Origin: Desulfobacterales bacterium
GTDB lineage: Bacteria > Desulfobacterota > Desulfobacteria > Desulfobacterales > JAOZSB01
Direction: 5' to 3'
Assembly (NCBI GenBank): GCA_029939895.1
Contig: JAOZSB010000003.1
Span: forward strand, 1 to 42,238
Length of the DNA: 42,238 nt
The notes under the pieces were generated by a model, which searched no databases, had not been told where the DNA came from, and saw nothing but the letters and a program-made list of their open reading frames with translations. Each line of letters starts with the position of its first letter. Position 1 is the first letter of the stretch. Below are positions 5,423 through 39,663 of this stretch, piece by piece. Made by a program: the position numbers and the translations under genes.

Positions 5423-5502
5423 TTTTTTGCTTATTTCATAATCAGACCTTCGGGATAGACTAAGCAATCGGCTTCATTGTTACATTTAAGTTAACTATGA
5501 AG
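5423..5502 (+). repeat. Isolated copy of ~80-bp element with decayed SD end
   Basis: ttttttgcttatttcataatcagaccttcgggatagactaagcaatcggcttc...ttaagttaactatgaag. Confidence 0.85.
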
Positions 5503-5633
5503 AATAAGCAATATTTTCCTTGCCCTTATCACCCGTATAGTTTAAGCCATTTGGCATAAACAATCTGATTTAACTATCAGATTAAATTGAACTGGTCAAT
5601 TACATTTTGTCGCACAAATATAAATACCTGGAG

Positions 5634-5793
5634 TTTTTTTTGCTTGTTTCATAATCAGGCCATCGGTATAAACCAGGCAATTGGCTTTGATGTTAATTTT
5701 AAGTTTATTAGGAGTTTTTTGCTTATTTCATAACCAGACCACCTGGATAAACTAAGCAAAAGGCTTCGATGTTAATATTAAGTTTATTAGGAG
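5634..5793 (+). repeat. Two tandem copies of ~80-bp element upstream of the YcaO gene
   Basis: GGAG at 5630, 5711 and 5790 (periods 81 and 79); last GGAG is 7 nt before GTG 5801. Confidence 0.95.
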
Positions 5794-5800
5794 ATTAACG

Positions 5801-7528
5801 GTGAAGACACGACTGACGCTAAAGGATTCAAAGAAAACCTATAAATACGATCAAGACAAAACCATGAAGCCAGAGGAAACCGTGGAGAAGTTCATGGGAA
5901 GGCTTCAAAACACAGGCCTTGATATTTTGGAAGAAGTAGTTCGCATAGACAACGGAAGGCTTGGAATCCCGGTCTATTTCAGTGTATGCGGCAAAGATGC
6001 CAAAAGGACGATTGGCACAAAAAAGCAGATGGGCAAGGGCGGAACCATTGAGCAGGCCAAGGCCAGTGCGGTTATGGAACTTGCTGAACGGTTCAGCTTT
6101 TTCAGTTTTGTTAAGGATCTTGAAAATTTTCAACAGGGAACCCACAAAGATTTTGCAAAGGATGCAGTCCCCTATGACATGATAATGAAATCTGTTCACG
6201 ATGAAACAGATGAGGCAGCAAAGCTCAAGGAAATATACGAAAACCTGCCCATGCGCTGGACATGGGGTTACAACATCTCAAGGGATGAAAACATGCTCGT
6301 CCCCTTTGACTGGTTTTTTACAATCAACGAATTCAACGGCCCATCATCGGGCAACACCAACGAGGAAGCAATTGTTCAGGGTATCAGCGAAATCGTAGAA
6401 CGCCATGTATGCTCCATCGTAAGCAGGGAAAAGATAAAGGCGCCGCTTATTGAGCTTGATTCTGCTGACCAGCCACTGGTTGTTGAGATGCTCGAAAAAT
6501 ACAAAAGCAACGGCATAGAACTCTATGTTTCAGATTTTACGCTCGATACGGGGATTCCCACTGTTGGGGTGCTTGCCCTTGATCCATCAACCTTCCCGGA
6601 AACAAGCGAGATTGTCTGGACAGCAGGTACTGCGCCTGATCCACAAAAGGCCTTTTCCAGAGCATTGACCGAAACCGCACAGCTTGCCGGGGACTTCAAC
6701 ACCTCGTCAAACTACCTTGCAAGCGGGCTGCCGAAGTTCGATAATATTAAGGATGCTGCATATATAATGGAGCCGGGCAGCAGTGTAAAAATTTCTGACC
6801 TGCCTGATATTTCCGACGACAATATTAAGGTGGAAGCGCAAAATGCCATTGACGCACTCAAGCAAAGAGGGTTTGATGTCATTCTCATAAACACCCGCCA
6901 CAAAGATCTTGATATACCGGCATTTTATACAATCGTGCCAGGAACCCATTTCAGGGAACGTGCCGTGAATACAAGCATGGGAATGTTCCTCTCACGCCTG
7001 GTCATCGCCAACCTGCCAGTTGATGCTGCGCTGGAACAACTGACACAGATGGATGCAATTATTCCAGGCATGTACTACATAAAATTCCAGACAGGACTGT
7101 GCCGCCTCAATATGGGAGAGATTGATGCTGCGCTCAGCGATTTTTCCTCGGCCCTTGAGCTGTCGCCAGGTGTTGAGGACATACCCAGCATATATTCCTA
7201 CATAGGTGTCTGCTACCGTGAAAAGGAAGATTATACAGCAGCCCTTGAGGCCCTGCAAAAGGGGGAGGAGTACGACACCCAGAGAACAGACATCCATAAC
7301 ATGATGGGATTTTGTCATTTCAAGCTGAAAAATCATGAACAGGCAATAACGCACTTTAAAAAGGTGATAGACCTTGATCCATCCTCAGCCATTGATTACG
7401 CAAATATCGGCATCAACTACAGGGATCTTGGCAATAAGGACGAGGCAATCAAATTTTTCACCACTGCCCTTGAAATTGATCCAACCCTTCATTTTGCACA
7501 GGAGAACCTGATCCGGCTTATGAAATAA
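5801..7528 (+). CDS. YcaO-family ATP-dependent amide-activating enzyme with C-terminal TPR repeats
   Basis: MGKG...AKASAVMELAER, NGPSSGNTNEEA..QGISEIVERH, RALTETAQ; C-terminal ~150 aa show about four TPR motifs. Confidence 0.85.
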   Translation: MKTRLTLKDSKKTYKYDQDKTMKPEETVEKFMGRLQNTGLDILEEVVRIDNGRLGIPVYFSVCGKDAKRTIGTKKQMGKGGTIEQAKASAVMELAERFSFFSFVKDLENFQQGTHKDFAKDAVPYDMIMKSVHDETDEAAKLKEIYENLPMRWTWGYNISRDENMLVPFDWFFTINEFNGPSSGNTNEEAIVQGISEIVERHVCSIVSREKIKAPLIELDSADQPLVVEMLEKYKSNGIELYVSDFTLDTGIPTVGVLALDPSTFPETSEIVWTAGTAPDPQKAFSRALTETAQLAGDFNTSSNYLASGLPKFDNIKDAAYIMEPGSSVKISDLPDISDDNIKVEAQNAIDALKQRGFDVILINTRHKDLDIPAFYTIVPGTHFRERAVNTSMGMFLSRLVIANLPVDAALEQLTQMDAIIPGMYYIKFQTGLCRLNMGEIDAALSDFSSALELSPGVEDIPSIYSYIGVCYREKEDYTAALEALQKGEEYDTQRTDIHNMMGFCHFKLKNHEQAITHFKKVIDLDPSSAIDYANIGINYRDLGNKDEAIKFFTTALEIDPTLHFAQENLIRLMK

Positions 7529-7567
7529 ACTGTGCCTGGGTAGGCTGAGTTGTGGAGTATTAATAAA

Positions 7568-7610
7568 AAAAAGTGCCTGAAGGATTTGAATTTTCCTTCA
7601 GGCACTTTTT
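7568..7610. terminator. Bidirectional Rho-independent terminator
   Basis: AAAAAGTGCCTGAAGGA-loop-TCCTTCAGGCACTTTTT between convergent genes. Confidence 0.9.
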
Positions 7611-7632
7611 GTTTTAAGTATGTAAGCCTCGG

Positions 7633-9609
7633 CTATTCTACATAAAGTTTCTGGCCGGGGTAAATTGTGTTGTTGTGTGTCATGGAGTTAATTTCCAGGA
7701 ACTTGTTAAGGGGCATGTTGTGCCTTCTTGCTATTGAAAAGGCAGAGTCCCCGGCCTTAACGCTGTAGGTTCTGGAGCTGCCCTTGCGGATAGTTTTTTT
7801 GCCGCCGGGAATTCTGAGAACCTGACCAATTCTAAGATTGGTGGTCATAAGGCTGTTAAGGGACATTATTCTTCTTGTGGTAGTATTATATTTTTTTGCC
7901 AGTATCCACAGGGAGTCGCCCCTTTTGACCAGGTGCCTTGCAGGTGTTGGCCCGGTATACTTTTTTGGGGCGGGCTTTCTGTAGGTTAAAGATCCCTTTG
8001 CCGGGATTTTCAGAAGCTTTCCAGCCACGATGTAGTTACGCTTGTTGATATTATTGGCATAGGCAATGCTCCTGACAGATGTGCGGTAACGTCTGGCAAT
8101 GGTGGAGAGGGCCTCACCGTTTCGTACCCTGTGATAGATAAACGCTGGTCTTGGTGTTGATGCAACCTTCAGCTTGCTGGCAATCAAGGTGAGTTGATTG
8201 GCCTTGGAGCTTGGCACTTTAAGGGGATAACCTTCGCCTGGGATGATGCTGTACCTGAGCTCCGGGTTCATCAGGGACAGGGCTTTTTTGTCAACATTGA
8301 TTGCCGATGCAACGTCCTTGAGATGCACCTGCTTGTCTATCTTAACTATTGAATAATCTTCAGGAGCGTCCACCTTGATGTCTGCCATGCCGTATTTTTC
8401 AAGGTTATTTATAATATGGAGCGTCGCAAGGAACCTGGGTACATATCTTGCGGTTTCCCTGGGAAGCTTCTGGTAAAGGTCCCAGAAATCGTCGAGGTAT
8501 TTTATGTTCTGGGTTCTGATGATGCGTAAAACCCTGCCTTCACCGCAGTTGTATGACGCAAGTGCAGTTGTCCAGTCGCCGAATATCTTGTGAAGCGCAG
8601 TGAGGTAGCCTATCGCAGCGATTGTAGCCTTGTCCGGGTCCATCCTTGAGTCAATGTACAGATCTCGTTTAAGGCCAAACTTGTACCCTGTGGAGGGTAT
8701 GAACTGCCAGAGTCCAAGTGCCCTTGCCTTTGAAAGAGCTTTTACCTTGTAGCCGCTTTCTATTAAGGGGAGCCATGAAAGTTCCGTGGGAAGTCCAGCC
8801 GCCTTAAGTTCCTTTACAATTTTAGGGCGGTACTTGCCAGAGCGTTTATATGACTGGATGAAAAATCTTCTTTCACCACCTGTGGTGAATAGTTTTATTT
8901 CACGTTTAACATATTTATTTATAACGATTGGAATTGCATTGTGATTTCCGTTTACCACGATGTTTCGTGAAGCATAAATTTCAAGAATCCGCTTTGAGAT
9001 CGTGAACCTGACATCTTCCTTTTGCTGTATGAGTTTGGGGTCGTCCATTGTATCAATGCTCAGAATAAAGGAGTATGCCTGGTCAAGAGCCTCGAGTGCA
9101 TTATCAAGGTCGCCTTTTTGCCAGAAATCCTGGGCTGCCTGGCAGAATTCAAGCGCACCGTCAAGTTTTGCCTGCTCTGATTTAACAGGAAGCAGCGCAT
9201 CGTCGGACTGCTTTGCCGTTGTTGAAGATTTTTCCTTTGGCGCAGCAATCTTATTGCAGGTCGCTGGAAGCGCAGCCTTTGAATTATCTTTGTTTTTGGA
9301 AATTGTTGTTTTTGTTGTACTTTCTGACTTTTCTGTAATATCTGATGATTGTGATGGGGCGTTATGATCATCTGATTGAACGGTTTTTTTGCCAAGAAGT
9401 GATCCAAGCTGTGTCCCGCTGAGCTGTTTATTACATCCTGCACTTGGAAGGATTAAGGCAATAATAAAAAAAAGCGCAGCAATATTAATGAAATAAGATT
9501 TAATAGTGAAAAACTTCTGAGATTTTGCATCAGAGATTTTCTTATATTCATTATTTAAGCTGGATTCATTATTGATGGAGGTCAGGGTCGAATTTAAATG
9601 TGTGCTCAT
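7633..9609 (-). CDS. MltD-like lytic murein transglycosylase with three LysM domains
   Basis: SLT motifs LIESG, ALGLWQF, ALASYNCG, ETARYVP; three LysM repeats (VRNGEAL, VKRGDSL, VKAGDSA); N-terminal membrane segment; start uncertain. Confidence 0.88.
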   Translation of the reverse strand: MSTHLNSTLTSINNESSLNNEYKKISDAKSQKFFTIKSYFINIAALFFIIALILPSAGCNKQLSGTQLGSLLGKKTVQSDDHNAPSQSSDITEKSESTTKTTISKNKDNSKAALPATCNKIAAPKEKSSTTAKQSDDALLPVKSEQAKLDGALEFCQAAQDFWQKGDLDNALEALDQAYSFILSIDTMDDPKLIQQKEDVRFTISKRILEIYASRNIVVNGNHNAIPIVINKYVKREIKLFTTGGERRFFIQSYKRSGKYRPKIVKELKAAGLPTELSWLPLIESGYKVKALSKARALGLWQFIPSTGYKFGLKRDLYIDSRMDPDKATIAAIGYLTALHKIFGDWTTALASYNCGEGRVLRIIRTQNIKYLDDFWDLYQKLPRETARYVPRFLATLHIINNLEKYGMADIKVDAPEDYSIVKIDKQVHLKDVASAINVDKKALSLMNPELRYSIIPGEGYPLKVPSSKANQLTLIASKLKVASTPRPAFIYHRVRNGEALSTIARRYRTSVRSIAYANNINKRNYIVAGKLLKIPAKGSLTYRKPAPKKYTGPTPARHLVKRGDSLWILAKKYNTTTRRIMSLNSLMTTNLRIGQVLRIPGGKKTIRKGSSRTYSVKAGDSAFSIARRHNMPLNKFLEINSMTHNNTIYPGQKLYVE

Positions 9610-10047
9610 TAGCGGGTCCTTTTAAAATTACATAAAAAGCTGTTTAAATTATAAATATAGACGAAACATTCTTCATCAAATTTTCTCTTTTATTTAAAAA
9701 TTATCAATAGGTCAAACAAAAAAATAATAAAATTGTGTCTCAAGTAAAATTTGCATCTATATGTAGTATTATAAACCTAAATTTTATTTATCAGTTAATT
9801 AAATCATTTGTCAAGTAATTATATATAAATTATGATAATTTTATTAAAAAGGGCATCAAGAAAAAGTAGGTAAAAAGTTTAAATTTCGAAAAACCGAGAA
9901 AATGGTTGAAAATAGAAGCTGAAAAGGGTAAAGAGGCTTGTAAGTGGATTTATTTGGAGATAAACAGATATAAATTGAAATTTTCAGGGTTGCCATTGCT
10001 AACCGAAGGGTGTAAGTGTACTGATTCGTTTTGAAGGTAATAGTTTC

Positions 10048-10075
10048 TTTGAAAAAAAAAATGTTTGGGTACAAT
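10048..10075 (+). promoter_or_regulatory. Candidate sigma70 promoter for the tRNA-tuf operon
   Basis: TTGAAA (10049) and TACAAT (10070) with a short 15-16 nt spacer, about 22 nt upstream of tRNA-Thr. Confidence 0.4.
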
Positions 10076-10097
10076 ACACGCCAGAAGTAATTTTTAA

Positions 10098-10174
10098 GCC
10101 AGCGTAGCTCAGTTGGCCAGAGCTACTGATTTGTAATCAGTGGGTCGGGGGTTCGAATCCCTCCGCTGGCTCCA
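10098..10174 (+). tRNA. tRNA-Thr(TGT)
   Basis: acceptor GCCAGCG/CGCTGGC, anticodon arm ACTGA-TT-TGT-AA-TCAGT, GGTTCGAATCC, encoded CCA. Confidence 0.97.
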
Positions 10175-10178
10175 GTGT

Positions 10179-10263
10179 GGTGGGGTTCCCGAGTGGTCAA
10201 AGGGAGCAGACTGTAAATCTGCCGGCGAAGCCTTCGGAGGTTCAAATCCTCCCCCCACCACCA
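10179..10263 (+). tRNA. tRNA-Tyr(GTA)
   Basis: GGTGGGG/CCCCACC, GCAGA-CT-GTA-AA-TCTGC, long variable arm, CCA. Confidence 0.97.
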
Positions 10264-10463
10264 CCCAACAATTATGTTGTATGTAGGAGATTTCGTGACA
10301 GAAATCGCTGGAACTACATGACTACTATTCCATGCGATGTATTATAATATCGTCACGTCAAATAATCCTGCAATATGATTTTTATTTATTTATAATGTCT
10401 TTAAATAATAGAGAAATCAAAAACACTTAAAACGAGCGTTTTTTTAATGCTAAAAAAATTGCT

Positions 10464-10539
10464 GCGGGAGTAGCTCAGCTGGTAGAGCTTCAGCCTTCCA
10501 AGCTGAATGTCGCGGGTTCGAGCCCCGTCTCCCGCTCCA
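10464..10539 (+). tRNA. tRNA-Gly(TCC)
   Basis: GCGGGAG/CTCCCGC, TCAGC-CT-TCC-AA-GCTGA, CCA. Confidence 0.97.
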
Positions 10540-10669
10540 TTAGCATTAAATAAAAATAAATGAGCAATTTATATTCTGTTCAAAAAATGGGTTCTTAAAT
10601 GGGTTCTATTGGATTCAGGTATGAGCTTTTTTGGGCTGACACACAAATTTGATTTGCAACAGGCACAAT

Positions 10670-10746
10670 GCCCGCGTAGCTCAGTCGGTAGAGCGCTTCC
10701 TTGGTAAGGAAGAGGTTCATCGGTTCAATTCCGATCGCGGGCTCCA
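10670..10746 (+). tRNA. tRNA-Thr(GGT)
   Basis: GCCCGCG/CGCGGGC, CTTCC-TT-GGT-AA-GGAAG, CCA. Confidence 0.97.
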
Positions 10747-10827
10747 TTTATTGCATTTTTTATGCTTTAAAAAAGTTTAAATTATAAGATTCTTTAGACA
10801 AAAATAAGCAACCAGGAGGACGTAAAA

Positions 10828-12021
10828 ATGGCAAAGGCAAAGTTCGAGAGAAATAAACCCCATGTAAACGTAGGCACAATTGGCCATATTGACCATGGTA
10901 AGACCACGCTTACAGCGGCGATCACAAAGCATAACGGCCTGAAGGGAATGGCAGAGTTTATCCCCTTTGACCAGATCGACAAGGCTCCAGAGGAAAAAGC
11001 CAGGGGCATAACCATTGCAACTGCCCATGTAGAGTATGAGACTGAAAATCGTCATTACGCACATGTTGACTGTCCAGGCCATGCTGACTACATCAAGAAC
11101 ATGATAACCGGTGCAGCACAGATGGACGGCGCAATACTGGTTGTTGGTGCTGACGATGGGCCAATGCCTCAAACCAGGGAACACATCCTTCTTGCTCGTC
11201 AGGTTGGTGTACCAAGGATAATCGTATTTTTGAACAAATGCGACATGGTAGACGACGAAGAACTAATCGAGCTGGTTGAACTTGAGATGCGTGAGCTTCT
11301 TGATAAGTACGATTTTCCTGGCGACGACACTCCGATTATCCAGGGAAGCGCACTCAAGGCACTTGAGAGCGATGACCCGGCCAGCGACGATGCCAAGTGC
11401 ATATTTGAGCTGATGGATGCAATCGACAGCTACATCCCAGAGCCGGAACGTGACATAGACAGACCATTCCTTATGCCCATTGAAGACGTATTCAGCATAT
11501 CCGGCCGTGGAACAGTTGTAACAGGCAGGGTAGACCGCGGAATCGTAAAAGTAGGCGAGGATGTAGAGATAGTAGGTATTCGTGACACGGTAAAGACAGT
11601 ATGTACAGGAGTTGAGATGTTCAGAAAACTTCTTGACGAAGGCCGTGCCGGAGACAACATAGGTGTTCTGCTTCGCGGAACAAAACGAGAAGATGTTGAG
11701 CGTGGTCAGGTAGTAGCCAAGCCCAAATCCATCACCCCCCATACAAAGTTCAAGGCCGAAGTATATATACTCAGCAAAGAAGAGGGCGGAAGACATACGC
11801 CATTCTTTAGCGGGTATCGTCCGCAGTTTTACTTTCGGACAACCGATGTTACCGGTGTATTGAGCCTGCCAGAGGGAGTAGAGATGGTAATGCCTGGAGA
11901 TCACATAACAATATCAGGTGATCTTATTACACCGATAGCAATGGAAAAAGAACTTAGGTTTGCGATCCGCGAAGGCGGTCGTACAGTCGGAGCTGGTGTT
12001 GTCAGCGAAATTATAGAATAA
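10828..12021 (+). CDS. tuf: Elongation factor Tu (copy 1)
   Basis: [23 protein letters not shown]; SD AGGAGG. Confidence 0.99.
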
Positions 12022-12395: not shown

Positions 12396-12485
12396 ATTTC
12401 GATTTATGATTCAGAAATTTTTGAAATTAGGAAGAAAGCAATCTTAAATTCAACAATTTCGAAGTCATATGAAATTTATTAAGAG

Positions 12486-12723
12486 ATTTTTTGCTTATTT
12501 TATAACCAGATCACCTGGATAAACTATGCAAAAGGCTTCATTGTTAATATTAAGTTTATTGGGAGTTTTTTTGCTTATTTCATAACCAGGCCTTCGGTTT
12601 AACTAAGCTAAAAAGCTTCGTTAAAAATCTAAGTTTATTGGGAGTTTTTTTGCTTATTTCATAACCAGACCTTAGGGATAAACAAAAATCATCGCTTCGT
12701 TAAAAATCTAAGTTTATTGGGAG
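12486..12723 (+). repeat. Three tandem copies of ~80-bp element upstream of secE (a further decayed 3' end lies just upstream)
   Basis: units 12486-12565, 12566-12644, 12645-12723; last GGAG is 6 nt before GTG 12730. Confidence 0.95.
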
Positions 12724-12729
12724 TTATTT

Positions 12730-13101
12730 GTGGGACGGTTACAGAAAAAAAAGCCAATAGATAAAAAAAGAAAAAATGGCGTGCGCAATGATGGCAACGG
12801 TGCAGAAGCTTCAGAAAATGGAGCAATAGTACCTGAGTCGTCAAAAAATACAAAAATCCAGACCAAGCCCGGGCCAAAGTCTTTTAAATCCACAAAGATT
12901 AAAAAGACCGATGGAAAGATTGGCAAGGCTTTACAATTTTTCCGCGAGGTAAAAGTTGAGCTGGAAAAAGTAACATGGCCTACAAAACAACAGACAATGG
13001 GCTCTACTGCCGTTGTGATTGTACTTGTTATGATAATTTCAATGTTTCTTGGAATCGTTGATTTTGGGCTGACGGAAGCTGTCCGTTTTATTCTGCAGTA
13101 G
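12730..13101 (+). CDS. secE: Preprotein translocase subunit SecE
   Basis: FFREVKVELEKVTWP plus single TM helix; located between tRNA-Trp and nusG. Confidence 0.93.
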   Translation: MGRLQKKKPIDKKRKNGVRNDGNGAEASENGAIVPESSKNTKIQTKPGPKSFKSTKIKKTDGKIGKALQFFREVKVELEKVTWPTKQQTMGSTAVVIVLVMIISMFLGIVDFGLTEAVRFILQ

Positions 13102-13162
13102 TGGCTGTTAATATGGTTTTGGAAGAGGCAGTTTCAGGAGCATAATTAAAATTTATTGAAAG

Positions 13163-13322
13163 CTTTTTTGCTTATTTACTAACCAGGCCACATGGATAAA
13201 CTAAGCAGATAGTTTCGATGAAAATTTTAAGTTTATCAGGAGATTTTTACTTATTTCATAACCAGACCTTATGTATAAACTAAGTGAAAATGCTTCGTTG
13301 TTAATGTTAAGTTTACTAGGAG
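13163..13322 (+). repeat. Two tandem copies of ~80-bp element upstream of nusG
   Basis: units 13163-13242 and 13243-13322; last GGAG is 6 nt before GTG 13329. Confidence 0.95.
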
Positions 13323-13328
13323 TAATAA

Positions 13329-13865
13329 GTGTCGAATAATATGAAATGGTATATTGTTCATGTCTATTCAGGGTTTGAAGGCAAGGTCAAGACCTCCCTT
13401 GAGGAGCGTATTGCTGAATCACCCCAAAAGGAAAAGTTCGGAGAAGTTGTTGTTCCTACTGAACAGATTGTAGAACTGGTAAATGGGAAAAGAAAAACGT
13501 CCTCCCGGAAATTTTACCCAGGCTACATACTTGTTCAACTGGAACTTAATGACGAAACCTGGCATATCGTGAACAACACAGCCAAAGTAACTGGTTTTCT
13601 GGGCGAAAGGAACAAGCCTACCCCAATAACCGAAGCAGAGGCCCAGACGATTCTCAACCGTATGGAAGAGGGTCAGACCAAGCCTCAGCCCAAATTTTAC
13701 TTTGAGACTGGCGATGAAATAAGGGTTATTGATGGACCTTTTACTAATTTTCACGGCACGGTTGAGGAAGTTAATCCTGAAAAGGGCAAAATTAAGGTGC
13801 TGGTAAGTATCTTTGGAAGGTCAACGCCTGTTGAACTGGAATTTGTTCAGGTAACGAAACTGTAA
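13329..13865 (+). CDS. nusG: Transcription termination/antitermination factor NusG
   Basis: WYIVHVYSGFE, PGYILV, KOW motif VIDGPF, IFGRSTPVEL. Confidence 0.98.
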   Translation: MSNNMKWYIVHVYSGFEGKVKTSLEERIAESPQKEKFGEVVVPTEQIVELVNGKRKTSSRKFYPGYILVQLELNDETWHIVNNTAKVTGFLGERNKPTPITEAEAQTILNRMEEGQTKPQPKFYFETGDEIRVIDGPFTNFHGTVEEVNPEKGKIKVLVSIFGRSTPVELEFVQVTKL

Positions 13866-26152: not shown

Positions 26153-26181
26153 GTAGAGAGCGCAGGTTCGCAAAGTGGGAG

Positions 26182-26340
26182 TTTTTGCTTACTTTATTAA
26201 AATTAACGGCAAAGATAAACTAAGCAATCGGCTTCAAAAAAAAATCTAAGTTTATTAGGAGATTATTTGCTTATTCCATAACCAGTTATCAGGTATAGAC
26301 TAAGCAATTGGCTTCGAAAAAAATTTAAGTTTATTAGGAG
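26182..26340 (+). repeat. Two tandem copies of ~80-bp element between rpsG and tuf
   Basis: units 26182-26261 and 26262-26340, preceded by GGGAG; last GGAG is 11 nt before ATG 26352. Confidence 0.93.
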
Positions 26341-26351
26341 ACTAGTAAAAG

Positions 26352-27545
26352 ATGGCTAAAGCAAAATTCGAGAGAAATAAACCCCATGTAAACGTAGGCA
26401 CAATTGGCCATATTGACCATGGTAAGACCACGCTTACAGCGGCGATCACAAAGCATAACGGCCTGAAGGGAATGGCAGAGTTTATCCCCTTTGACCAGAT
26501 CGACAAGGCTCCAGAGGAAAAAGCCAGGGGCATAACCATTGCAACTGCCCATGTAGAGTATGAGACTGAAAATCGTCATTACGCACATGTTGACTGTCCA
26601 GGCCATGCTGACTACATCAAGAACATGATAACCGGTGCAGCACAGATGGACGGCGCAATACTGGTTGTTGGTGCTGACGATGGGCCAATGCCTCAAACCA
26701 GGGAACACATCCTTCTTGCTCGTCAGGTTGGTGTACCAAGGATAATCGTATTTTTGAACAAATGCGACATGGTAGACGACGAAGAACTAATCGAGCTGGT
26801 TGAACTTGAGATGCGTGAGCTTCTTGATAAGTACGATTTTCCTGGCGACGACACTCCGATTATCCAGGGAAGCGCACTCAAGGCACTTGAGAGCGATGAC
26901 CCGGCCAGCGACGATGCCAAGTGCATATTTGAGCTGATGGATGCAATCGACAGCTACATCCCAGAGCCGGAACGTGACATAGACAGACCATTCCTTATGC
27001 CCATTGAAGACGTATTCAGCATATCCGGCCGTGGAACAGTTGTAACAGGCAGGGTAGACCGCGGAATCGTAAAAGTAGGCGAGGATGTAGAGATAGTAGG
27101 TATTCGTGACACGGTAAAGACAGTATGTACAGGAGTTGAGATGTTCAGAAAACTTCTTGACGAAGGCCGTGCCGGAGACAACATAGGTGTTCTGCTTCGC
27201 GGAACAAAACGAGAAGATGTTGAGCGTGGTCAGGTAGTAGCCAAGCCCAAATCCATCACCCCCCATACAAAGTTCAAGGCCGAAGTATATATACTCAGCA
27301 AAGAAGAGGGCGGAAGACATACGCCATTCTTTAGCGGGTATCGTCCGCAGTTTTACTTTCGGACAACCGATGTTACCGGTGTATTGAGCCTGCCAGAGGG
27401 AGTAGAGATGGTAATGCCTGGAGATCACATAACAATATCAGGTGATCTTATTACACCGATAGCAATGGAAAAAGAACTTAGGTTTGCGATCCGCGAAGGC
27501 GGTCGTACAGTCGGAGCTGGTGTTGTCAGCGAAATTATAGAATAA
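26352..27545 (+). CDS. tuf: Elongation factor Tu (copy 2)
   Basis: protein identical to copy 1. Confidence 0.99.
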
Positions 27546-30332: not shown

Positions 30333-30347
30333 ACACACACTTTTATA

Positions 30348-30382
30348 AAAAGCGTAGATGGAAATTTTAAGTTTATTAGGAG
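30348..30382 (+). repeat. 3' fragment of the ~80-bp element upstream of rpsS
   Basis: aaaagcgtagatggaaattttaagtttattaggag, 5 nt before ATG 30388. Confidence 0.7.
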
Positions 30383-30387
30383 ACAAG

Positions 30388-30666
30388 ATGCCCAGGTCGT
30401 TAAAAAAAGGCCCGTTTATTGAAGACAAGCTAATGAAGAAAGTCCTCATGGCCCAAGAGCAGCGGAGCAACAAGGTGATAAAAACATGGTCGAGAAGATC
30501 GACTATAATACCTGAGATGGTTGGGCTTACGCTGGCCGTTCATAATGGGAAAAAGTTTATACCAGTGTTTGTGACAGAAGATATGGTAGGGCATAAGCTG
30601 GGTGAATTTTCTCCGACCAGAACTTTTTATGGTCATGCCAGCGGCAAGAAAACTAAGGTTAGATAA
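30388..30666 (+). CDS. rpsS: 30S ribosomal protein S19
   Basis: [23 protein letters not shown]; start moved to ATG 30388. Confidence 0.99.
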
Positions 30667-31714: not shown

Positions 31715-31794
31715 TTTTTTGTTTATCTTGTAGATTAACCCTTTAAAGTAAGCAAAAATCTAAGCTTCGTAAAAACATTAAAGTTCGACTGGAG
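31715..31794 (+). repeat. Single diverged copy of ~80-bp element upstream of rplP
   Basis: TTTTTGTTTA...TAAGCAAAAA stem, GCTTCG, AAGTT..GGAG 7 nt before ATG 31802; 80 bp long. Confidence 0.75.
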
Positions 31795-31801
31795 ATATAA
31801 T

Positions 31802-32218
31802 ATGCTTAGCCCAAAGAAAGTAAAGCATAGGAAAGTACAAAAAGGAAAAATGAGGGGAGCAGCCTATCGAGGCGGCGACCTTAGCTTCGGAGAATACGGC
31901 CTCCAGGCAGTCGAGTGTGGCAAGATCAGCTCAAAGCAAATTGAAGCTGCCCGTATTGCCATGACAAGGCATGTAAAAAGAGGCGGAAAGATGTGGATCA
32001 GGATTTTCCCGGACAAGCCATATACTAAAAAACCTGCTGAAGTACGGATGGGCAAGGGTAAAGGGCCACCAGAAGGTTGGGTGGCAGTAATCAAGCCTGG
32101 CAGAGTGTTATATGAAATGTCTGGAGTACCGAGGGAAATGGCAAAAGAGGCCTTGAGACTGGCTGCCCACAAACTCCCTGTAAAAACCAAATTTGTCGCA
32201 AGGGATGAAATGATATGA
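31802..32218 (+). CDS. rplP: 50S ribosomal protein L16
   Basis: QIEAAR, RMGKGKG. Confidence 0.99.
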
Positions 32219-33067: not shown

Positions 33068-33112
33068 AAGGCCGAGTTATAGAATATAAGAAGATCGGGA
33101 GATTTTTTAATC

Positions 33113-33584: not shown

Positions 33585-34124
33585 ATGTCGCAGATTAAGG
33601 AATTTTACGAAACAGATGTTGTTCCCAAACTTATTGAAAAATTTGGGTACACGAACAAATTTCAAGTACCCAAGATCGATAAGATAGTCCTGAACATGGG
33701 ACTTGGAGAGGCGATTCAGAATATAAAAGTGCTTGATTCCGCAGTTGAAGAGATTGCTTTGATCGCAGGCCAGAAGCCTGTTATTACAAGAGCAAAAAAA
33801 TCAATCGCGGCTTTTAAGCTCAGGACAGGAATGCCAATCGGTTGCATGGTGACTCTGAGAAGACAAAAAATGTTCGATTTTTATAACAAATTTGTAAACA
33901 TTGCTCTTCCCCGTGTTAAAGACTTCAGGGGTATTTCTGGCAAATCTTTTGATGGAAAGGGAAACTATTCCCTTGGTATCAAAGAACACATAATTTTTAC
34001 AGAAATCGATTATGACAGGTTAGATCATATTAAAGGCATGAATATATCAATCGTAACCACGGCCAAGACCGATGAGGAAGGCAAAGAACTCCTCAGACTC
34101 CTTGGTATGCCGTTCAAGAATTAA
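33585..34124 (+). CDS. rplE: 50S ribosomal protein L5
   Basis: [18 protein letters not shown]. Confidence 0.99.
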
Positions 34125-34141
34125 TCGATAAGGAGGCCGGA

Positions 34142-34327
34142 TTGGCTAGAAAAGCGCTAAGAGAAAAGGCAAGTAGAAAACCCAAGTTTGGGGTGCGGGC
34201 ATATAACAGATGCCCAATCTGCGGACGACCGAGGGCTTTCTTGAGAAGATTCGGAATTTGCAGGATATGTTTTAGAAATCTTGCTTCCCAGGGAAAGCTT
34301 CCAGGGGTGATAAAGTCAAGTTGGTAG
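34142..34327 (+). CDS. rpsN: 30S ribosomal protein S14 (Zn-binding short form)
   Basis: RCPICGR...[14 protein letters not shown]; TTG start behind AGGAGG. Confidence 0.98.
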
Positions 34328-34358
34328 CAAACGAAAATGTTTTTGGAGTAATTGCAAC

Positions 34359-34757
34359 ATGAAGGTGACAGATTCCATAGCAGATATGCTTACGAGAATT
34401 CGCAACGCAGGCAGAGCAAAATTCAACAGTGTAGATATTCCTGGTTCCAAGATGAAAATCGATATAGCCAGGGTCCTCAAGAGCGAGGGATACATTAAGA
34501 ATTATAAGTTTGTCAAAGATAGCAAACAAGGAGTTCTGCGGGTTTACTTAAAATATGGTCCAGACAGCAGGCACGCTATTTACGGTATTGAAAGAGCGAG
34601 CAAGTCAAGCAGGCGACTGTACTCAAAAAGTAAAAATATTAAACCCGTACTCAACGGACTTGGCATTTCGATCCTGACTACCTCAAGGGGAGTCATGGCC
34701 GACAAGGAAGCTAAAAAGATGAATACAGGTGGAGAAGTTATCTGCCGAGTCTGGTAG
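34359..34757 (+). CDS. rpsH: 30S ribosomal protein S8
   Basis: IADMLTRIRNA, GGEVIC. Confidence 0.99.
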   Translation: MKVTDSIADMLTRIRNAGRAKFNSVDIPGSKMKIDIARVLKSEGYIKNYKFVKDSKQGVLRVYLKYGPDSRHAIYGIERASKSSRRLYSKSKNIKPVLNGLGISILTTSRGVMADKEAKKMNTGGEVICRVW

Positions 34758-34758
34758 C

Positions 34759-35075
34759 CTTTTGCTTATTTACCGCAATAACCAGGTGAATGAACTGAAT
34801 TTATAAAAGGCTATGTTGTTAGATTTAATCATTTAGAGCTTGTTTGCTTTTTTTTTAACCGAAACATCGGGATAAACAAAATCATAGCTCAGTCAAAAAT
34901 TTTGGTTTATTAGAAGCTTTTTGCTTATTTCATAACCAGACCAGCGAAATAAACTAAGCAACCTGCTTCGAAGGTAATTTTAAGTTTATTGGGAGTTTTT
35001 TTGTTTATTTCATAACCAAACCACTTGGATAAACTAAGCAGAAAGCTTCGTTGTTACTATTAAGTTTATTGGGAG
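34759..35075 (+). repeat. Four tandem copies of ~80-bp element upstream of rplF, increasingly decayed toward the 5' side
   Basis: units ~34759-34838, 34839-34916, 34917-34995, 34996-35075; last GGAG is 6 nt before ATG 35082. Confidence 0.93.
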
Positions 35076-35081
35076 TACAAA

Positions 35082-35618
35082 ATGTCGCGAGTTGGCAAAA
35101 AACCGATAGAGATACCTGCAAAGACAACAGTATCATATAAAGATAGGGTTGTGACTGTTAAGGGGGCAAAGGGAAGCCTTGATTTGACCGTGCATCCGGC
35201 AGTCGATCTTTTAGTTGAGGATAGCAAAGTTAACGTCAACCTTATAAAAGATGACAAACAGAGCAGAGCAATTCAGGGCTTGATGAGATCTCTTGTCGCA
35301 AATATGATTATTGGAACAGACAAAGGCTTTGAAAAAATTCTGGAGCTTAACGGGATAGGTTATAAGGCTGAAGTTAAAGGAAATCAAATATTATTCAACC
35401 TTGGCTTTTCACATCAGATTAGTTTTGAGTTGCCAGAAAGCATCAGCGCAACCATTGATAGAAAGCAGATAAAACTTACCGGGATTGACAAAGAAATTCT
35501 GGGAAGAACCGCTGCATCCATTAGAGATCTAAGGCCACCTGAGCCATATAAGGGCAAGGGCATTAAATATCTTGAAGAGAGAATAATCAGAAAGGCTGGC
35601 AAGACCGGCGCAAAATAA
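35082..35618 (+). CDS. rplF: 50S ribosomal protein L6
   Basis: MSRVGKKP, PEPYKGKGI. Confidence 0.99.
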   Translation: MSRVGKKPIEIPAKTTVSYKDRVVTVKGAKGSLDLTVHPAVDLLVEDSKVNVNLIKDDKQSRAIQGLMRSLVANMIIGTDKGFEKILELNGIGYKAEVKGNQILFNLGFSHQISFELPESISATIDRKQIKLTGIDKEILGRTAASIRDLRPPEPYKGKGIKYLEERIIRKAGKTGAK

Positions 35619-35636
35619 AAAAGGGAATTTTTAACA

Positions 35637-36005
35637 ATGGGCGCTACAAACCCAAGACTTCTTGCGAGGCAAAAGCGTAAGAAAAGAATCAGGAAGAGAA
35701 TTATCATATCAGCTGACAGACCAAGGTTGAGCGTATTTAGAAGTGCAAAACACATGTACGCACAAATTGTTGATGATATAAGCGGGAATACCCTTGTTGC
35801 TGCATCTTCATTAGAAAAAGAAGTAGCAGAAAATAAAGAGTTGAAAAACAAGACCGATAGAGCCAAGGTTGTTGGCCAGATGGTTGCAGCCAGGGCAAAA
35901 GAAAAAGGTATCAGCCGTGTTGTTTTCGACAGGAATGGATTTCTTTACCACGGCAGAGTAAAAGCAGTTTCTGACGGTGCCCGTAAAGCTGGTTTGGAAT
36001 TATAG
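35637..36005 (+). CDS. rplR: 50S ribosomal protein L18
   Basis: RPRLSVFRS, VVFDRNG.YHGRV. Confidence 0.99.
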   Translation: MGATNPRLLARQKRKKRIRKRIIISADRPRLSVFRSAKHMYAQIVDDISGNTLVAASSLEKEVAENKELKNKTDRAKVVGQMVAARAKEKGISRVVFDRNGFLYHGRVKAVSDGARKAGLEL

Positions 36006-36020
36006 GCGAAAGATAAAACA

Positions 36021-36178
36021 TTTTATTTGCTTGTTTGTTAACCGAGCCATTTGAATAAACAAAGGTAATGCTTCGCTAAGAATTTAAGTTTATTAGGAGC
36101 TTTTTTGCTTATTTCATAACCAGACCTTAGGGATAAACTATGGTTTGGCTTCGACAAAACATTTAAGTTTATTGGGAG
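36021..36178 (+). repeat. Two tandem copies of ~80-bp element upstream of rpsE
   Basis: units 36021-36099 and 36100-36178; GGAGG ends 7 nt before TTG 36187. Confidence 0.93.
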
Positions 36179-36186
36179 GAAAGTCC

Positions 36187-36681
36187 TTGATAAGGCGAGA
36201 ACAGGAAGATAGTCAATATATCGATAAAGTCGTTTATATAAACCGTGTTGCAAAGGTTGTTAAGGGCGGACGTAGATTCAGCTTTAGTGCGATTGTTGTT
36301 GTAGGAGATGGCCAGGGCATGGTTGGTTTCGGCCTGGGCAAAGCTGGAGAAGTCCCAGAAGCGATAAGAAAAGGCGTTGAAAAGGCCAAAAAAACTATGG
36401 TCAGTGTTCCTCTTGTAGATGGAACCATACCTTACGAAGTTGTTGGGAGGTACGGCGCTGGCAGGGTACTTTTAAAACCAGCCTCACAGGGAACTGGCGT
36501 TATTGCCGGTGGTGCTGTTCGTGCTGTGCTTGAAGCGGTCGGCGTTCAGAATATTCTTACCAAGTGCCTTGGATCGAACAACCCTCATAATGTGGTAAAA
36601 GCGACTATCAGCGGGCTGAGTGGTTTACAGAGCAAGGAACAAATAGCTGCAAGACGCGGAATTAACCCTGCGGATCTTTAA
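36187..36681 (+). CDS. rpsE: 30S ribosomal protein S5
   Basis: [21 protein letters not shown]; start moved to TTG 36187 because the upstream extension is repeat sequence. Confidence 0.98.
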
Positions 36682-36693
36682 AGGTGCGGAAAA

Positions 36694-36876
36694 ATGGCTG
36701 ATAAAATTAAAATTACAATGATTAAATCCATGATAGGCAGACCTGAAAAGCACAGAAAAGTGCTTAGGGGGATGGGCCTTACAAAAATAAATAAAACCGT
36801 GGAACTTGTAGACACACCCTCAACAAGAGGAATGGTCAACAAGGTTTGCCATCTGGTTAAGGTCGAGGAGAACTAA
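36694..36876 (+). CDS. rpmD: 50S ribosomal protein L30
   Basis: [16 protein letters not shown]. Confidence 0.97.
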
Positions 36877-36879
36877 AAA

Positions 36880-37320
36880 ATGAAGCTGCATGAACTTTCT
36901 CCTGCAAAGGGATCGACAAGACCAAGAAAGCGTGTTGGAAGAGGACCTGGTTCCGGAACTGGCACATTCGCTGGTCGAGGTTGTAATGGTCAGAACAGTA
37001 GAAGTGGCGGTGGCGTTAGACCGGGTTTTGAAGGCGGCCAGATGCCTCTACAGAGAAGGCTTCCCAAAAGAGGCTTTACAAATATATTTAAGAAAAAATA
37101 CGCCCTGATCAATATTTCAGACCTTGTAAAGTTTGATGGAAGTGCTGTTGTTGATGAGGTTGCTCTTGTAAAAGCCGGACTGGTAAAGGGCAAAAGGGAT
37201 GGCGTTAAACTCCTTGGTAATGGTGAACTTAGCGTAGCTTTGACAATCAAGGTTGACAAGGCAAGCAAGGGGGCGGTCGAAAAAGTTGAGGCTGCCGGCG
37301 GAAAAATAGATTTAAGCTGA
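36880..37320 (+). CDS. rplO: 50S ribosomal protein L15
   Basis: RVGRG, GFEGGQMPL.RRLPKRGF. Confidence 0.99.
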   Translation: MKLHELSPAKGSTRPRKRVGRGPGSGTGTFAGRGCNGQNSRSGGGVRPGFEGGQMPLQRRLPKRGFTNIFKKKYALINISDLVKFDGSAVVDEVALVKAGLVKGKRDGVKLLGNGELSVALTIKVDKASKGAVEKVEAAGGKIDLS

Positions 37321-37385
37321 TACACCCTTGGAGTTATTTTTTTTTGTTCAGGCAATAACTAACAATTTTTTAGGATGAAAATAAA

Positions 37386-38678
37386 TTGGTAGGCAGCAGC
37401 GTAAGAAATATATTTAAGATTCCAGAGCTAAAAAAGCGCATACTTTTTACTGCACTGTTACTTGCGGTTTACAGAGTTGGCGTTCATGTTCCAACACCTG
37501 GAATTGATGCAGGAGCTTTGGCAGATTTTTTCGCAAGGGCGCAGGACACGATATTTGGTCTTTTCAATATGTTCTCTGGTGGAGCATTGGAAAGGCTCTC
37601 TGTTTTTGCCCTGGGAATTATGCCTTACATCAGCGCATCAATTATTTTGCAGCTTTTAACCGTTGCAATTCCTCACCTGGAAAGACTTTCAAAAGAAGGT
37701 GAGCAGGGAAGAAAAAAGATAACCCAGTACACCCGTTATGGTACTGTATTCCTGAGTATAATTCAGGGATTCGGAATCAGCGTCGGGCTTGAGCAGATGG
37801 GTGTTGTACTTGATCCGGGATGGTCCTTTAGAGTCATGACGGTGCTTACACTTACTGCTGGAACAGCATTTATCATGTGGCTTGGGGAACAGATTACAGA
37901 ACACGGAATCGGAAACGGCATATCATTAATAATATTTGCCGGTATCGTTGCCAGGTTACCCGCTGCTACATCAAAAACTTTCAAGATGATGACCACTGGC
38001 GATATGGGAATTTTTGGTGTAATTCTTTTGACAGCCTTCATGGTTGGTGTAATTGCAATTATAGTATTTATGGAACAGGGGCAGCGCAGGCTCCCGGTGC
38101 AGTATCCAAAACGGATGGTTGGCAGAAAAATGTATGGAGGACAGGCATCCTATCTTCCATTAAAGATAAACACCTCTGGTGTTATTCCGCCGATTTTTGC
38201 ATCATCTATAATAATGTTTCCTGCAACCGCCGCTGGTTTTATTGATGTACCCTGGATGAAAGCTGTTGCAGATGCGCTTCGTCCTGGCAGTATTTTTTAT
38301 GAAGTTCCATTTATAGCCCTGATATTCTTTTTCTGTTACTTTTATACTGCTGTAACATTTAATCCATCAGATGTTGCGGACAATCTTAAAAAACAGGGTG
38401 GATTTATTCCAGGCATAAGGCCTGGCAAAAGAACAGCCGATTTTATAGATCGTGTTCTTACCCGGATTACACTTGGAGGTGCGATTTACATATCAGCAAT
38501 ATGCGTCCTCCCGTCTATAATGATGACAAAATTCAACGTACCCTTCTACTTTGGCGGCACATCACTTTTGATTGTTGTTGGAGTTGCAATCGACACAGTA
38601 TCGCAGATTGAATCACACATGCTTAGTCGTAATTACGAAGGATTTTTGAAAAAAGGTACTATGAAGGGCAGACGGTAA
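37386..38678 (+). CDS. secY: Preprotein translocase subunit SecY
   Basis: [35 protein letters not shown]. Confidence 0.99.
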
Positions 38679-38759
38679 TTTCATTGCTTTGATTCTTAAA
38701 AAATAAGAATCAGAGTGCAATTAAAAATTTAGTAGTTATATTTGAAAAAGGATAAAAGC

Positions 38760-38978
38760 ATGGCTAAAGAAGAAGCAATCAGAGTTGAGGGAACGGTGAG
38801 AGAAACGTTGCCCAATGCCATGTTCAAGGTTGAGCTTGAAAATAAACATCAGGTTTTGGCTCATATATCTGGAAAAATGCGAATGCATTTTATCAAGATA
38901 CTGCCTGGAGATACAGTAACAGTCGAACTTTCTCCCTATGATCTTTCACGGGGCAGGATTGTTTACAGGGCTAAGTAG
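38760..38978 (+). CDS. infA: Translation initiation factor IF-1
   Basis: MAKEEAI, LPNAMF, HISGKMR, SPYDL; start moved to ATG 38760. Confidence 0.98.
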
Positions 38979-38994
38979 TTATTGGAGAGATTTT

Positions 38995-39108
38995 ATGAAA
39001 GTAAGAGCTTCAGTTAAAAAAATGTGCGCAAAATGCAAGATTGTCCGCAGGAAAAATGTTGTGCGGGTCATTTGCGAAAACAAAAGACATAAACAAAGGC
39101 AAGGTTAA
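38995..39108 (+). CDS. rpmJ: 50S ribosomal protein L36 (Zn-ribbon form)
   Basis: manual translation [37 protein letters not shown]; absent from the ORF track. Confidence 0.97.
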
Positions 39109-39119
39109 GGAGGATAGGT

Positions 39120-39503
39120 TTGGCTAGGATCGCAGGAGTTGACTTGCCCAGGGGCAAGCGCGTGGAGATCGGGATAACCTATATCAGGGGCATTGGAAGA
39201 AGTTCCTCCCAAAAGATATTGGACAAGCTCAAGATTGATTACAATACCAAGACTGACGATTTATCTGATGCTGAAGTTAATGCAATTAGACGAGTAATTG
39301 ATGATGAGTACATGGTAGAAGGTGAACTTAGAACTGAAGTATCCATGAACATCAAAAGGCTTATGGATCTTGGTTGCTATAGAGGACTTCGTCATAGAAA
39401 GTCTCTCCCATGCCACGGTCAAAGAACAAGTACTAACGCCAGAACTCGAAAAGGGCCGAGACGAACGGCTGTTAAGAAAAAAGGCGGAGTCAAGAAGAAA
39501 TAA
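39120..39503 (+). CDS. rpsM: 30S ribosomal protein S13
   Basis: [26 protein letters not shown]. Confidence 0.99.
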
Positions 39504-39584
39504 TCCTTTTTTCGATTTATGATTTTTTGATTATAAATACTAATCAAAATTAAAAAAATCATAATATCTAAGGTTTATCAGGAG

Positions 39585-39663
39585 TTTTTTATTTTATTGT
39601 CTTCCATATCTTATGGATTAGCTAAATAAAATGCTTCGATGAAAAATTTAAGTTTATTGGGAG
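39585..39663 (+). repeat. Diverged copy of ~80-bp element upstream of rpsK, preceded by a decayed unit/AT-rich hairpin ending in GTTTATCAGGAG
   Basis: TTTTATTT...AAATAAAA and CCATA/TATGG stems, GCTTCG, TTAAGTTTATTGGGAG; 79 bp long. Confidence 0.85.

Follow-up and report, generated by a model that had tools for sequence, protein, structure and literature searches.

An 80-nt repeat that ends in a Shine-Dalgarno sequence lies directly before the start codons of about 200 genes in a Desulfobacterales genome

The window analysed here, a 42,238-nt stretch of DNA that comprises positions 1 to 42,238 of contig JAOZSB010000003.1 (C244 in our numbering) in the Desulfobacterales assembly GCA_029939895.1, carries a family of repeat units of about 80 nt whose 3' ends supply a GGAG Shine-Dalgarno (SD) sequence to the genes that follow. 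Sixteen of the units are clear, two are degenerate and two are partial, and all of them lie on the + strand. The genes served in the window encode an epimerase/dehydratase, YcaO, SecE, NusG, EF-Tu and the ribosomal proteins S19, L16, L6, S5 and S11, and the upstream partners include the genes for S7, L2, S3, S8, L18 and S13; both sets are confirmed by Pfam. The source assembly is a 4.70-Mb draft of 529 contigs, 94% complete and with 42% G+C. Comparison of RpoB places the organism within the Desulfobacterales, its best identity being 75%, to uncultured members, and the DNA runs that contain the stretch are hydrothermal-vent and marine-sediment metagenomes; no RNA run is listed among those containing it. 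The units and their parts in the window are as follows.

48-109, + strand: partial unit consisting of the 3' 62 nt (nhmmer profile positions 24-85), with GGAG at 103-106, 5 nt before the likely ATG at 112 of the epimerase/dehydratase gene that it serves (nhmmer, sequence, Pfam).
5421-5500, + strand: lone unit that lacks a terminal GGAG, separated by 135 nt from the next array downstream and followed only by a 20-codon open reading frame (ORF) (nhmmer).
5636-5796, + strand: two-unit array with GGAG at 5630-5633 directly 5' of it and a terminal GGAG 7 nt before the ycaO GTG at 5801 (Tandem Repeats Finder (TRF), nhmmer, Pfam).
12485-12725, + strand: three-unit array preceded by a degenerate 3'-module copy at 12475-12486, its terminal GGAG 6 nt before the secE GTG at 12730 (TRF, nhmmer, Pfam).
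13162-13324, + strand: two-unit array between secE and nusG, terminal GGAG at 13319-13322, 6 nt before the GTG at 13329 (nhmmer, Pfam).
26181-26343, + strand: two-unit array between rpsG and the second tuf gene; GGGAG at 26177-26181 adjoins the first unit, and the terminal GGAG is 11 nt before the ATG at 26352 (nhmmer, Pfam).
30349-30384, + strand: solo 3' module of about 36 nt after the rplB stop codon, GGAG at 30379-30382, 5 nt before the rpsS ATG at 30388 (nhmmer, motif, Pfam).
31715-31794, + strand: degenerate single unit between rpsC and rplP, GGAG at 31791-31794, 7 nt before the ATG at 31802 (repeat scan, sequence, Pfam; missed by nhmmer at E <= 0.01).
34758-35077, + strand: four-unit array, the first unit degenerate, which fills the rpsH-rplF junction from 1 nt past the rpsH TAG stop codon; terminal GGAG 6 nt before the ATG at 35082 (TRF, nhmmer, sequence, Pfam).
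36023-36180, + strand: two-unit array between rplR and rpsE, GGAG at 36175-36178, 8 nt before the TTG at 36187 (nhmmer, sequence, Pfam).
39570-39666, + strand: 3'-module copy at 39570-39584 followed by a unit with a degenerate 5' half, GGAG at 39660-39663, 14 nt before the rpsK ATG at 39678 (nhmmer, sequence, Pfam).

In a repeat-family scan of the window the units fall into overlapping families of 9-14 copies each. A 19-nt 5' motif, TTGCTTATTTCATAACCAG, occurs 12 times when up to three mismatches are allowed, always on the + strand, against a mean of 0.05 in shuffled sequence, and a 16-nt 3' motif, TTAAGTTTATTRGGAG, occurs 17 times with up to two mismatches, 16 of these on the + strand at the places listed (shuffle mean 0.11); none of 100 shuffles reaches 12 for the first motif or 17 for the second. 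An nhmmer profile built from 16 window units gives 18 matches on the window's contig, all on the + strand. They comprise the two partial units (48-109 and 30349-30384) and full units starting at 5421, 5636, 5714, 12485, 12565, 12644, 13162, 13244, 26181, 26263, 34838, 34916, 34995, 36023, 36099 and 39584. The degenerate units at 31715 and 34759 are seen only in the repeat-family scan (31744-31803) and on reading the sequence. Head-to-tail arrays with a period of 79-80 nt are reported by TRF at 5636-5793, 12475-12729 and 34918-35076, and the identity of this period with the length of the unit leaves no room for CRISPR-type spacers, which rules out a CRISPR array.

At all ten served genes of the window the last GGAG, read from the sequence, is 5-14 nt before the likely start codon. 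Three starts of longest ORFs, at 100, 36145 and 39639, fall inside units, so that the true starts are probably 112, 36187 and 39678. A sequence-only reading of the window, made before the present analysis, had described the units as sense to the next gene, with the last GGAG at this distance from the start codon except at a lone copy without GGAG (5421-5500, there placed at 5423), and had named the genes concerned; all of this stands, every gene name being confirmed by Pfam. Its count of about 18 full units needs adjustment, since 16 are clear and full, those at 31715 and 34759 exist in degenerate form, and the two partial units correspond to the fragments that it gave at 50-106 and 30348-30382.

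The arrangement extends far beyond the window. Across the whole assembly nhmmer returns 398 matches at a cut-off of E <= 0.01, distributed over 193 contigs and spanning 29,775 nt, or 0.63% of the assembly; 256 of them remain at E <= 1e-8. These matches form 317 arrays (255 of one unit, 48 of two, 10 of three, three of four and one of five), 62 of which are therefore multi-unit. Arrays were assessed when their 3' end was intact and 150 nt or more of sequence lay downstream, and were counted as ‘served’ when an ORF of 60 or more amino acids came within the next 40 nt. This is the case for 180 of 246 arrays (73%), against 41 of 302 (14%) in a mirror control, in which the same ORF test is run from the 5' end of the array on the opposite strand, and 710 of 4649 (15%) for random intergenic points. 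The non-random orientation and distance to start codons noticed in the window thus hold genome-wide. An exact GGAG is present in 135 of the 180 served arrays, and in 106 of these the spacer is 5-9 nt long, with a mode of 6-7 nt. Among the served ORFs, 149 begin with ATG, 22 with TTG and nine with GTG, and the upstream neighbour is co-directional at 173 of 218 arrays.

The 66 arrays without a served ORF are followed by another repeat family (14), by a short ORF (12), by a co-oriented gene further downstream (24), by a convergent gene (15, the only such cases among the 246 arrays) or by a contig end (1). When 20 served ORFs were drawn at random, 19 matched Pfam, and their functions are unrelated and of a housekeeping kind; examples are PurA, QueH, a SerC-type aminotransferase, AdoHcy hydrolase, KdsA/DAHP synthase, an ABC exporter, decarboxylases, a pilin-like protein and an enoyl-CoA hydratase. 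The element lies directly before the start codon of about one gene in 20, or some 200 genes, and the repeat observation is real, holds across the genome and is statistically overwhelming.

A second GGAG is found at the other end of the unit. Among first or single units, 59 of 157 have a GGAG no more than 7 nt 5' of the T-run with which the unit begins, against a background of 0.9% in intergenic sequence, an excess of about 40-fold, and in 47 of the 59 the flank is otherwise not unit-like. Of 121 units with non-unit-like flanks, 42 have GGAG within 25 nt, and in 34 of these it lies at exactly 4-5 nt from the TTG of the unit. GGAG therefore stands at a fixed register on either side of the unit, which may represent a 4-bp duplication or, alternatively, a specific target together with the element's own end. 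The 3' end of 16S rRNA, looked for as a check on the anti-SD sequence, was not found in the assembly.

The two tuf genes of the window allow a comparison of starts with and without units. At the tuf gene at 10828, which has no unit, the order is AGGAGG, 8 nt, ATG; at the tuf gene at 26352 it is GGGAG, two units ending in AGGAG, a similar spacer and ATG. The two copies (10828-12021 and 26352-27545) are 99% identical over the first 300 nt compared, units being present only before the second, which follows directly on rpsG with no fusA between the genes for S7 and EF-Tu. The rpsH-rplF junction can be compared with that of 13 relatives from the same order, all belonging to other genera and families. 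The spacer is 13-17 nt in seven of them and 39-228 nt in six, against 324 nt here, and in the relatives GGAG lies 6-7 nt before the ATG. Their rplR-rpsE spacers were left out of the comparison, the start estimates there being unreliable. One relative's 228-nt spacer contains what appears by eye to be an ordinary insertion of the MITE type (miniature inverted-repeat transposable element), flanked by inverted repeats and placed upstream of an intact native SD. At the rplB-rpsS junction one divergent contig, from another organism, has 32 nt in place of the spacer with the 3' module.

The copies have a mean pairwise identity of 75%, and conservation is very uneven along the unit. Conservation reaches about 90-99% in three blocks, namely a 5' one (the T-run and GCTTATTTCATAACCAG), ATAAAC together with GCTTCG, and a 3' one (TTAAGTTTATTRGGAG), which is A/T-rich and closes with TTTATTRGGAG. 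Three other stretches are near random. The pattern is the same in terminal units that serve a gene, in internal units and in units that serve none; the exact GGAG is present in 117 of 136 serving, 52 of 66 internal and 23 of 40 non-serving units. Similarity among copies stops at the GGAG, beyond which spacer and start codon vary by locus.

The first 50 nt of the consensus can form an imperfect hairpin in which the 5' end pairs with unit positions 39-48. Over 193 distinct copies the paired fraction of the cells of this 16-pair hairpin is 74.3%; column shuffles give 74.0%, 15 of 300 of them reaching the observed value. With the partner slid, 33-48% are paired, and the median z-score of the minimum free energy is -1.1. 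For 16 window units the corresponding values are 82.1% and 79.3%. Compensatory changes are no commoner among the 193 copies than in column shuffles, and RNAalifold finds no consensus structure for the 16 window units or the 193. The 5' strand of the hairpin is near-invariant while its partner strand varies, which argues for constraint on the sequence rather than on pairing; a switch between the 5' hairpin and a 7-bp pairing that adjoins the SD was also considered, but all its positions are invariant. In the window, Rfam 15 at gathering thresholds detects only five tRNAs and no unit, its best match between 12400 and 13400 at E <= 10 scores 23.4 bits against a cut-off of 80, and it has no matches at four loci with related modules. 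Of the proposals in the sequence-only reading, that the unit matches no described RNA family is borne out for Rfam 15, whereas a structured cis-regulatory RNA used in tandem finds little support, there being no fold backed by covariation.

The consensus contains stop codons in all three frames. Each unit opens with a 4-codon mini-ORF, UUG CUU AUU UCA UAA, which is intact in 96 of 124 gap-free units. Of 64 units in which a GGAG precedes the mini-ORF by no more than 15 nt, 63 have it exactly 5 nt before the UUG. A different small ORF occurs in the unit variant with CGATGTTAATATTAAG before ycaO (5757-5800), where a 9-codon ORF extends from an ATG across the SD and stops 2 nt before the ycaO GTG; ORFs of this type are confined to the CGATGTTAATATTAAG subfamily.

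Units next to each other in an array share 80% identity, compared with 75% over all pairs, and only 14 of 80 comparisons show the neighbour as the closest relative. Most arrays are therefore not recent local duplications, although a few are; on contig C339 three units have near-identical nhmmer scores (76.5, 76.8 and 76.5 bits) and equal scores under the covariance model. Each half of the unit can also be found on its own. The 5' half is present alone in a tandem of 38-nt period at C284:32898-33012, next to a run of N, and other repeats interrupt it in some copies; a solitary 3' half can follow immediately on a stop codon, as at 30349-30384. REP-like repeats of the GCCCTGTAAGGGC type interrupt several of the 80-nt units after the 5' half.

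The SD-bearing end is shared with other repeats. A second family, with a 164-nt period, is represented by 73 blastn pieces on 56 contigs (median identity 89% for the 42 pieces of at least 100 nt); it is hairpin-rich and sometimes tandem, examples being C64:4004-4167, C95, C54, C125 and C51:6700-7000, and it has no Rfam match. It ends in the same SD-bearing module, AAGTTTATTAGGAG, before start codons, and an ORF follows in 19 of 24 assessable copies. A third module, which contains GTCCGCTTTGCGAATTAACC, comes after the SD-bearing 3' module in all 14 of its copies, in 12 of them 6 nt past an exact GGAG; its loci include C415:5711, C508, C383, C32 and C526, and its start resembles by eye the 5' block of the unit (GCTT..AT.AACCA). 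A short recurring motif (AACGGGACACTACTGA), probably a further repeat family, is present at 30-52 in the window and on C134, C104, C400 and C430, near unit fragments and contig ends.

Two of the window's genes have features of their own. SecE (12730-12930) is extended at its N terminus by a long lysine-rich segment, the Pfam SecE domain occupying only residues 69-122 of 123. The 3' part of the L17 gene (42150-42238) contains 12-nt tandem repeats (AAGAAAAAGAAG-like), whose sequence suggests a lysine/glutamate-rich C-terminal tail.

A covariance model of the unit, applied with strict filters to the larger genome sets, gives no match in 40 relatives that represent as many families, or in 150 genomes sampled across the order. 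Exact-pattern scans of species genomes and of viral contigs and blastn searches of plasmids and phages give no unit, records of the organism's own genome possibly being excluded from these sets. In metagenome contigs the exact pattern has one match, by chance, within the coding sequence of an unrelated contig. An exact-word search of the open-access literature found no description of such an element in the Desulfobacterota.

The interpretation favoured here, to which we give a probability of roughly 0.55, is that the unit is a lineage-specific, non-autonomous and probably mobile element that inserts just 3' of an SD GGAG and carries a replacement for it. Integration would take place in a single orientation and immediately behind the GGAG, at its 3' edge, leaving the old SD stranded upstream and bringing the unit's own terminal GGAG to face the gene's original spacer and start codon. 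The gene would then stay translatable after insertion, and the event may be nearly neutral for the host. Since every unit would carry its target at its end, others could land behind its terminal GGAG, creating head-to-tail arrays with a period of 79-81 nt and allowing the unit to mix with other modules that share that end. Units placed in this way would be co-transcribed with their genes as 5' leader or intercistronic RNA. The combination of one orientation, nucleotide-precise position, GGAG on both sides and heterogeneous targets would be hard to obtain from random insertion followed by selection, and conserved ends with a free interior are the product expected of selection at the level of the element. 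This is close to the second proposal of the sequence-only reading, a mobile element domesticated as a portable ribosome-binding module. The portable module fits the position, the orientation, the register of the 5' GGAG, the conserved ends, the heterogeneity of the served genes and the failure to find it in the relatives searched; domestication is a step that these observations do not demonstrate.

A number of points weigh against insertion of a mobile element. About 60% of first units have no exact 5' GGAG. This is attributed to decay of the disused SD, for which there is a weak trend: units with the flanking GGAG score 59.6 bits against 55.2 for the others (p = 0.027). Strong conservation of the ends at 25% divergence could instead reflect selection at the level of the host. 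Only 16 pairs of units are at least 95% identical which, with the mean identity of 75%, indicates that the copies are old and that there has been no recent burst. The case for mobility is an indirect one, and the gene counts across the genome follow the simple ORF rules given above rather than a trained gene finder.

The search for an enzyme adds to these points. Two Y1 (HUH) transposase genes and one gene of the IS110 type have flanks unrelated to the units, no Y2 or TnpB genes were found in the assembly, and no pair of unit ends 0.4-3 kb apart fits an autonomous parent in this 94%-complete but fragmented assembly. One of the Y1 genes (C76:16300-17130) is flanked on both sides by GC-rich palindromes of the GCCCTGTAAGGGC type and looks like a RAYT with its REPs. 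Several classes of element were considered and set aside. The unit is not a MITE by its terminal inverted repeats, since it has none: its 5' end pairs with the internal positions 39-48, and the terminal blocks are not reverse complements of each other. It is not a REP/BIME with a RAYT, since the units are AT-rich, head-to-tail and in one orientation, and the repeat that flanks the Y1 gene on C76 is a different, GC-rich palindromic one. As for a non-autonomous element derived from the IS200/IS605 or IS110 type, no autonomous relative with the same ends was found, with the same reservation about the completeness of the assembly.

Of the other explanations, the one that survives best, though we think it unlikely, is that the unit is a functional translational leader of the host, a cis-acting 5'-untranslated or intercistronic RNA that sets or co-regulates the translation of some 200 genes. 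It could act as an A/U-rich S1-type enhancer joined to an SD, through a trans-acting protein or small RNA that recognises the invariant 5' block, or through a ribosome relay by way of the mini-ORF. Blocks conserved at 90-99% despite a mean divergence of 25% are what such a role would predict, and the retention of GGAG in internal units almost as often as in serving ones, and less often in non-serving ones, is in keeping with it; the conservation pattern as a whole, however, is equal in units that serve no gene, and no covariation supports a structure. The mini-ORF is largely intact and kept in register with the preceding GGAG, but this is a property of one consensus sequence. Units stand in essential operons without sign of harm, and a similar proposal has been made for the TAACTGA repeats of the Beggiatoaceae (PMC4679880). 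Codon adaptation is slightly higher in served genes (0.7395 against 0.7316, p = 0.003), but the effect is tiny and marginal and does not rise with the number of units. Against a regulon, moreover, the 20 sampled served genes have no common function, and the presence of the element in none of the relatives searched argues against an ancestral regulatory device.

Rather more doubtful is a spread of the minisatellite type, in which one leader would have been copied from one translation-initiation region to another by recombination or gene conversion at GGAG microhomology and expanded by replication slippage. The GGAG on both sides of the unit, the arrays of near-identical units such as the three on C339, the 38-nt tandem of the 5' module alone on C284 and the lack of any transposase linked to the element are all compatible with such a process. 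Four nucleotides of homology, however, are too short for homologous recombination to seed some 300 loci, neighbours within arrays are usually not closest relatives, and the precise register of the junctions suggests a cut defined by an enzyme.

Two bolder readings are, even when taken jointly, improbable to a similar degree. In the first, the units and the modules that share their SD-bearing 3' end would form a relay of SD, 4-codon mini-ORF, leader and SD that is used by the host: the preceding GGAG would capture ribosomes and pass them on to the next, and the number and type of units would tune or co-regulate the translation of about 5% of genes, among them those for ribosomal proteins, EF-Tu, SecE and NusG. 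In the second, related to it, the whole family would be moved by a site-specific system whose target is the Shine-Dalgarno sequence itself.

A signal at the level of DNA, the unit being a promoter or a protein-binding site such as a sigma-54-like GG..GC across the junction of GGAG, T-run and GC, seems very unlikely. Some junctions do read TGG-N10-GC by eye, and the invariant 23-nt 5' block resembles a sequence-specific site more than a structure. However, the distance from GG to GC shifts with the length of the T-run and the -24 element is poor, as read from the alignments, and the sigma-54-like idea was dropped, by eye, on account of this varying spacing; a CsrA-type role of the GGA was entertained as well, likewise by eye. 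No consensus of an intrinsic terminator lies inside any window unit, and the sole match in a sigma-70 scan that touches a unit scores nine of 12 positions, at 13312-13340, running from the unit's last nucleotides into nusG. A promoter before single genes inside ribosomal-protein operons, in up to five tandem copies, would also be hard to justify. An artefact of assembly or binning, for which only the draft state of 529 contigs speaks, is scarcely credible given diverged copies (75% identity) in unique sequence on 193 contigs and contigs from other runs that match unit-gene junctions exactly (26274-26602 and 39419-39661). The metagenome contigs of the four DNA runs break at units, and joints between units could derive from other copies.

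If insertion behind the SD by a mobile element is the right interpretation, the unit is a selfish or semi-domesticated repeat that avoids inactivating genes by bringing with it the translation signal that it displaces, having done this before about 200 genes, with ten of the junctions in bacterial operons of the highest conservation. A strategy of SD replacement would then be added to the strategy of ORF coupling proposed for MIRUs. Integration would, moreover, have a strand-specific target of 4 nt, a reaction to which no enzyme can be assigned here. The natural series of zero to five identical leaders before different genes provides a test set for how translation responds to leaders, mini-ORFs and the spacing between cistrons. 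In genomes of this kind, gene-calling programs and operon predictions will go wrong at starts and junctions, as the three longest-ORF starts inside units illustrate.

Among known systems, elements of the IS200/IS605 or IS110 type have asymmetric ends and insert strand-specifically beside a short sequence without a classical target duplication. They offer a mechanistic analogy only; the present unit has one subterminal hairpin rather than two, and no transposase gene of these types in the assembly is flanked by unit ends. MITE and REP-type repeats such as Correia, ERIC, BOX, RUP, SPRITE and REP/BIME resemble the unit in being small, non-coding, abundant, lineage-restricted and co-transcribed with their neighbours (PMC3049150, PMC3184786), and BOX is described as modular in build (PMC3049150). 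All of these, however, have terminal inverted repeats or GC-rich palindromes, whereas the ends of the present unit are asymmetric. Pneumococcal BOX, RUP and SPRITE are reported to be over-represented between convergent genes (PMC3049150), in contrast to the single orientation of the unit relative to the gene and its nucleotide-precise position at the SD.

The tandem TAACTGA direct repeats of marine Beggiatoaceae lie a few nucleotides upstream of start codons, including those in ribosomal-protein operons, and are described as preceding genes without a functional pattern, a role in translation being proposed for them (PMC4679880). Their units are of 7 nt, with sets of two to six copies in the Beggiatoa genome and, according to the same report, usually no canonical ribosome-binding site (PMC4679880). 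The 80-nt unit, in contrast, is composite and itself supplies a canonical GGAG.

The nearest precedents, by analogy, appear to be REP2 of Neisseria and the MIRUs. REP2 and the Borrelia IR are described as intergenic repeats that have no terminal inverted repeats, are situated immediately before ORFs, carry a ribosome-binding site and contain internal stem-loops, their origin and mode of spread being left unexplained in that account (PMC3184786). The unit shares with REP2 both a ribosome-binding site and a position immediately before ORFs, as the 180 of 246 arrays and the modal spacer of 6-7 nt show. REP2 itself is 120-150 bp long, has about 26 copies, carries a promoter and the ATG and is associated with a co-regulated set of genes (PMC3184786). 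The present unit is of 80 nt, has some 400 matches, forms tandem arrays and serves an incoherent set of genes; it has no promoter consensus beyond the one weak sigma-70-like match, and the start codon belongs to each gene.

MIRUs, as treated in a 2025 review, are apparently mobile and insert at start codons, the downstream gene remaining translated by means of an internal ORF that is coupled to it at a spacing of -4 nt (PMC12548453). Like the unit, they are short dispersed repeats, often in tandem, that lie between co-oriented genes in one orientation, which is reflected here in the 173 of 218 co-directional upstream neighbours and the 62 of 317 multi-unit arrays. The two differ in that the present unit has no coupling ORF, having stops in three frames and only the 4-codon mini-ORF at its 5' end, and in that its 3' end provides an SD of its own 5-9 nt ahead of the start while its 5' edge adjoins the old one. 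There is no sequence similarity between them, and the MIRUs belong to another phylum.

The novelty that the sequence-only reading saw in the unit thus holds for the element, which matches no Rfam family, more than for the idea, of which MIRUs and Neisseria REP2 are close analogues. What sets the family apart from MIRUs, REP2 and the TAACTGA repeats is that the unit ends in an SD while the gene keeps its own start, that a second GGAG stands at its 5' edge, and that a modular sequence of about 80 nt, present in some 400 copies, has its SD-bearing end in common with other repeat families.

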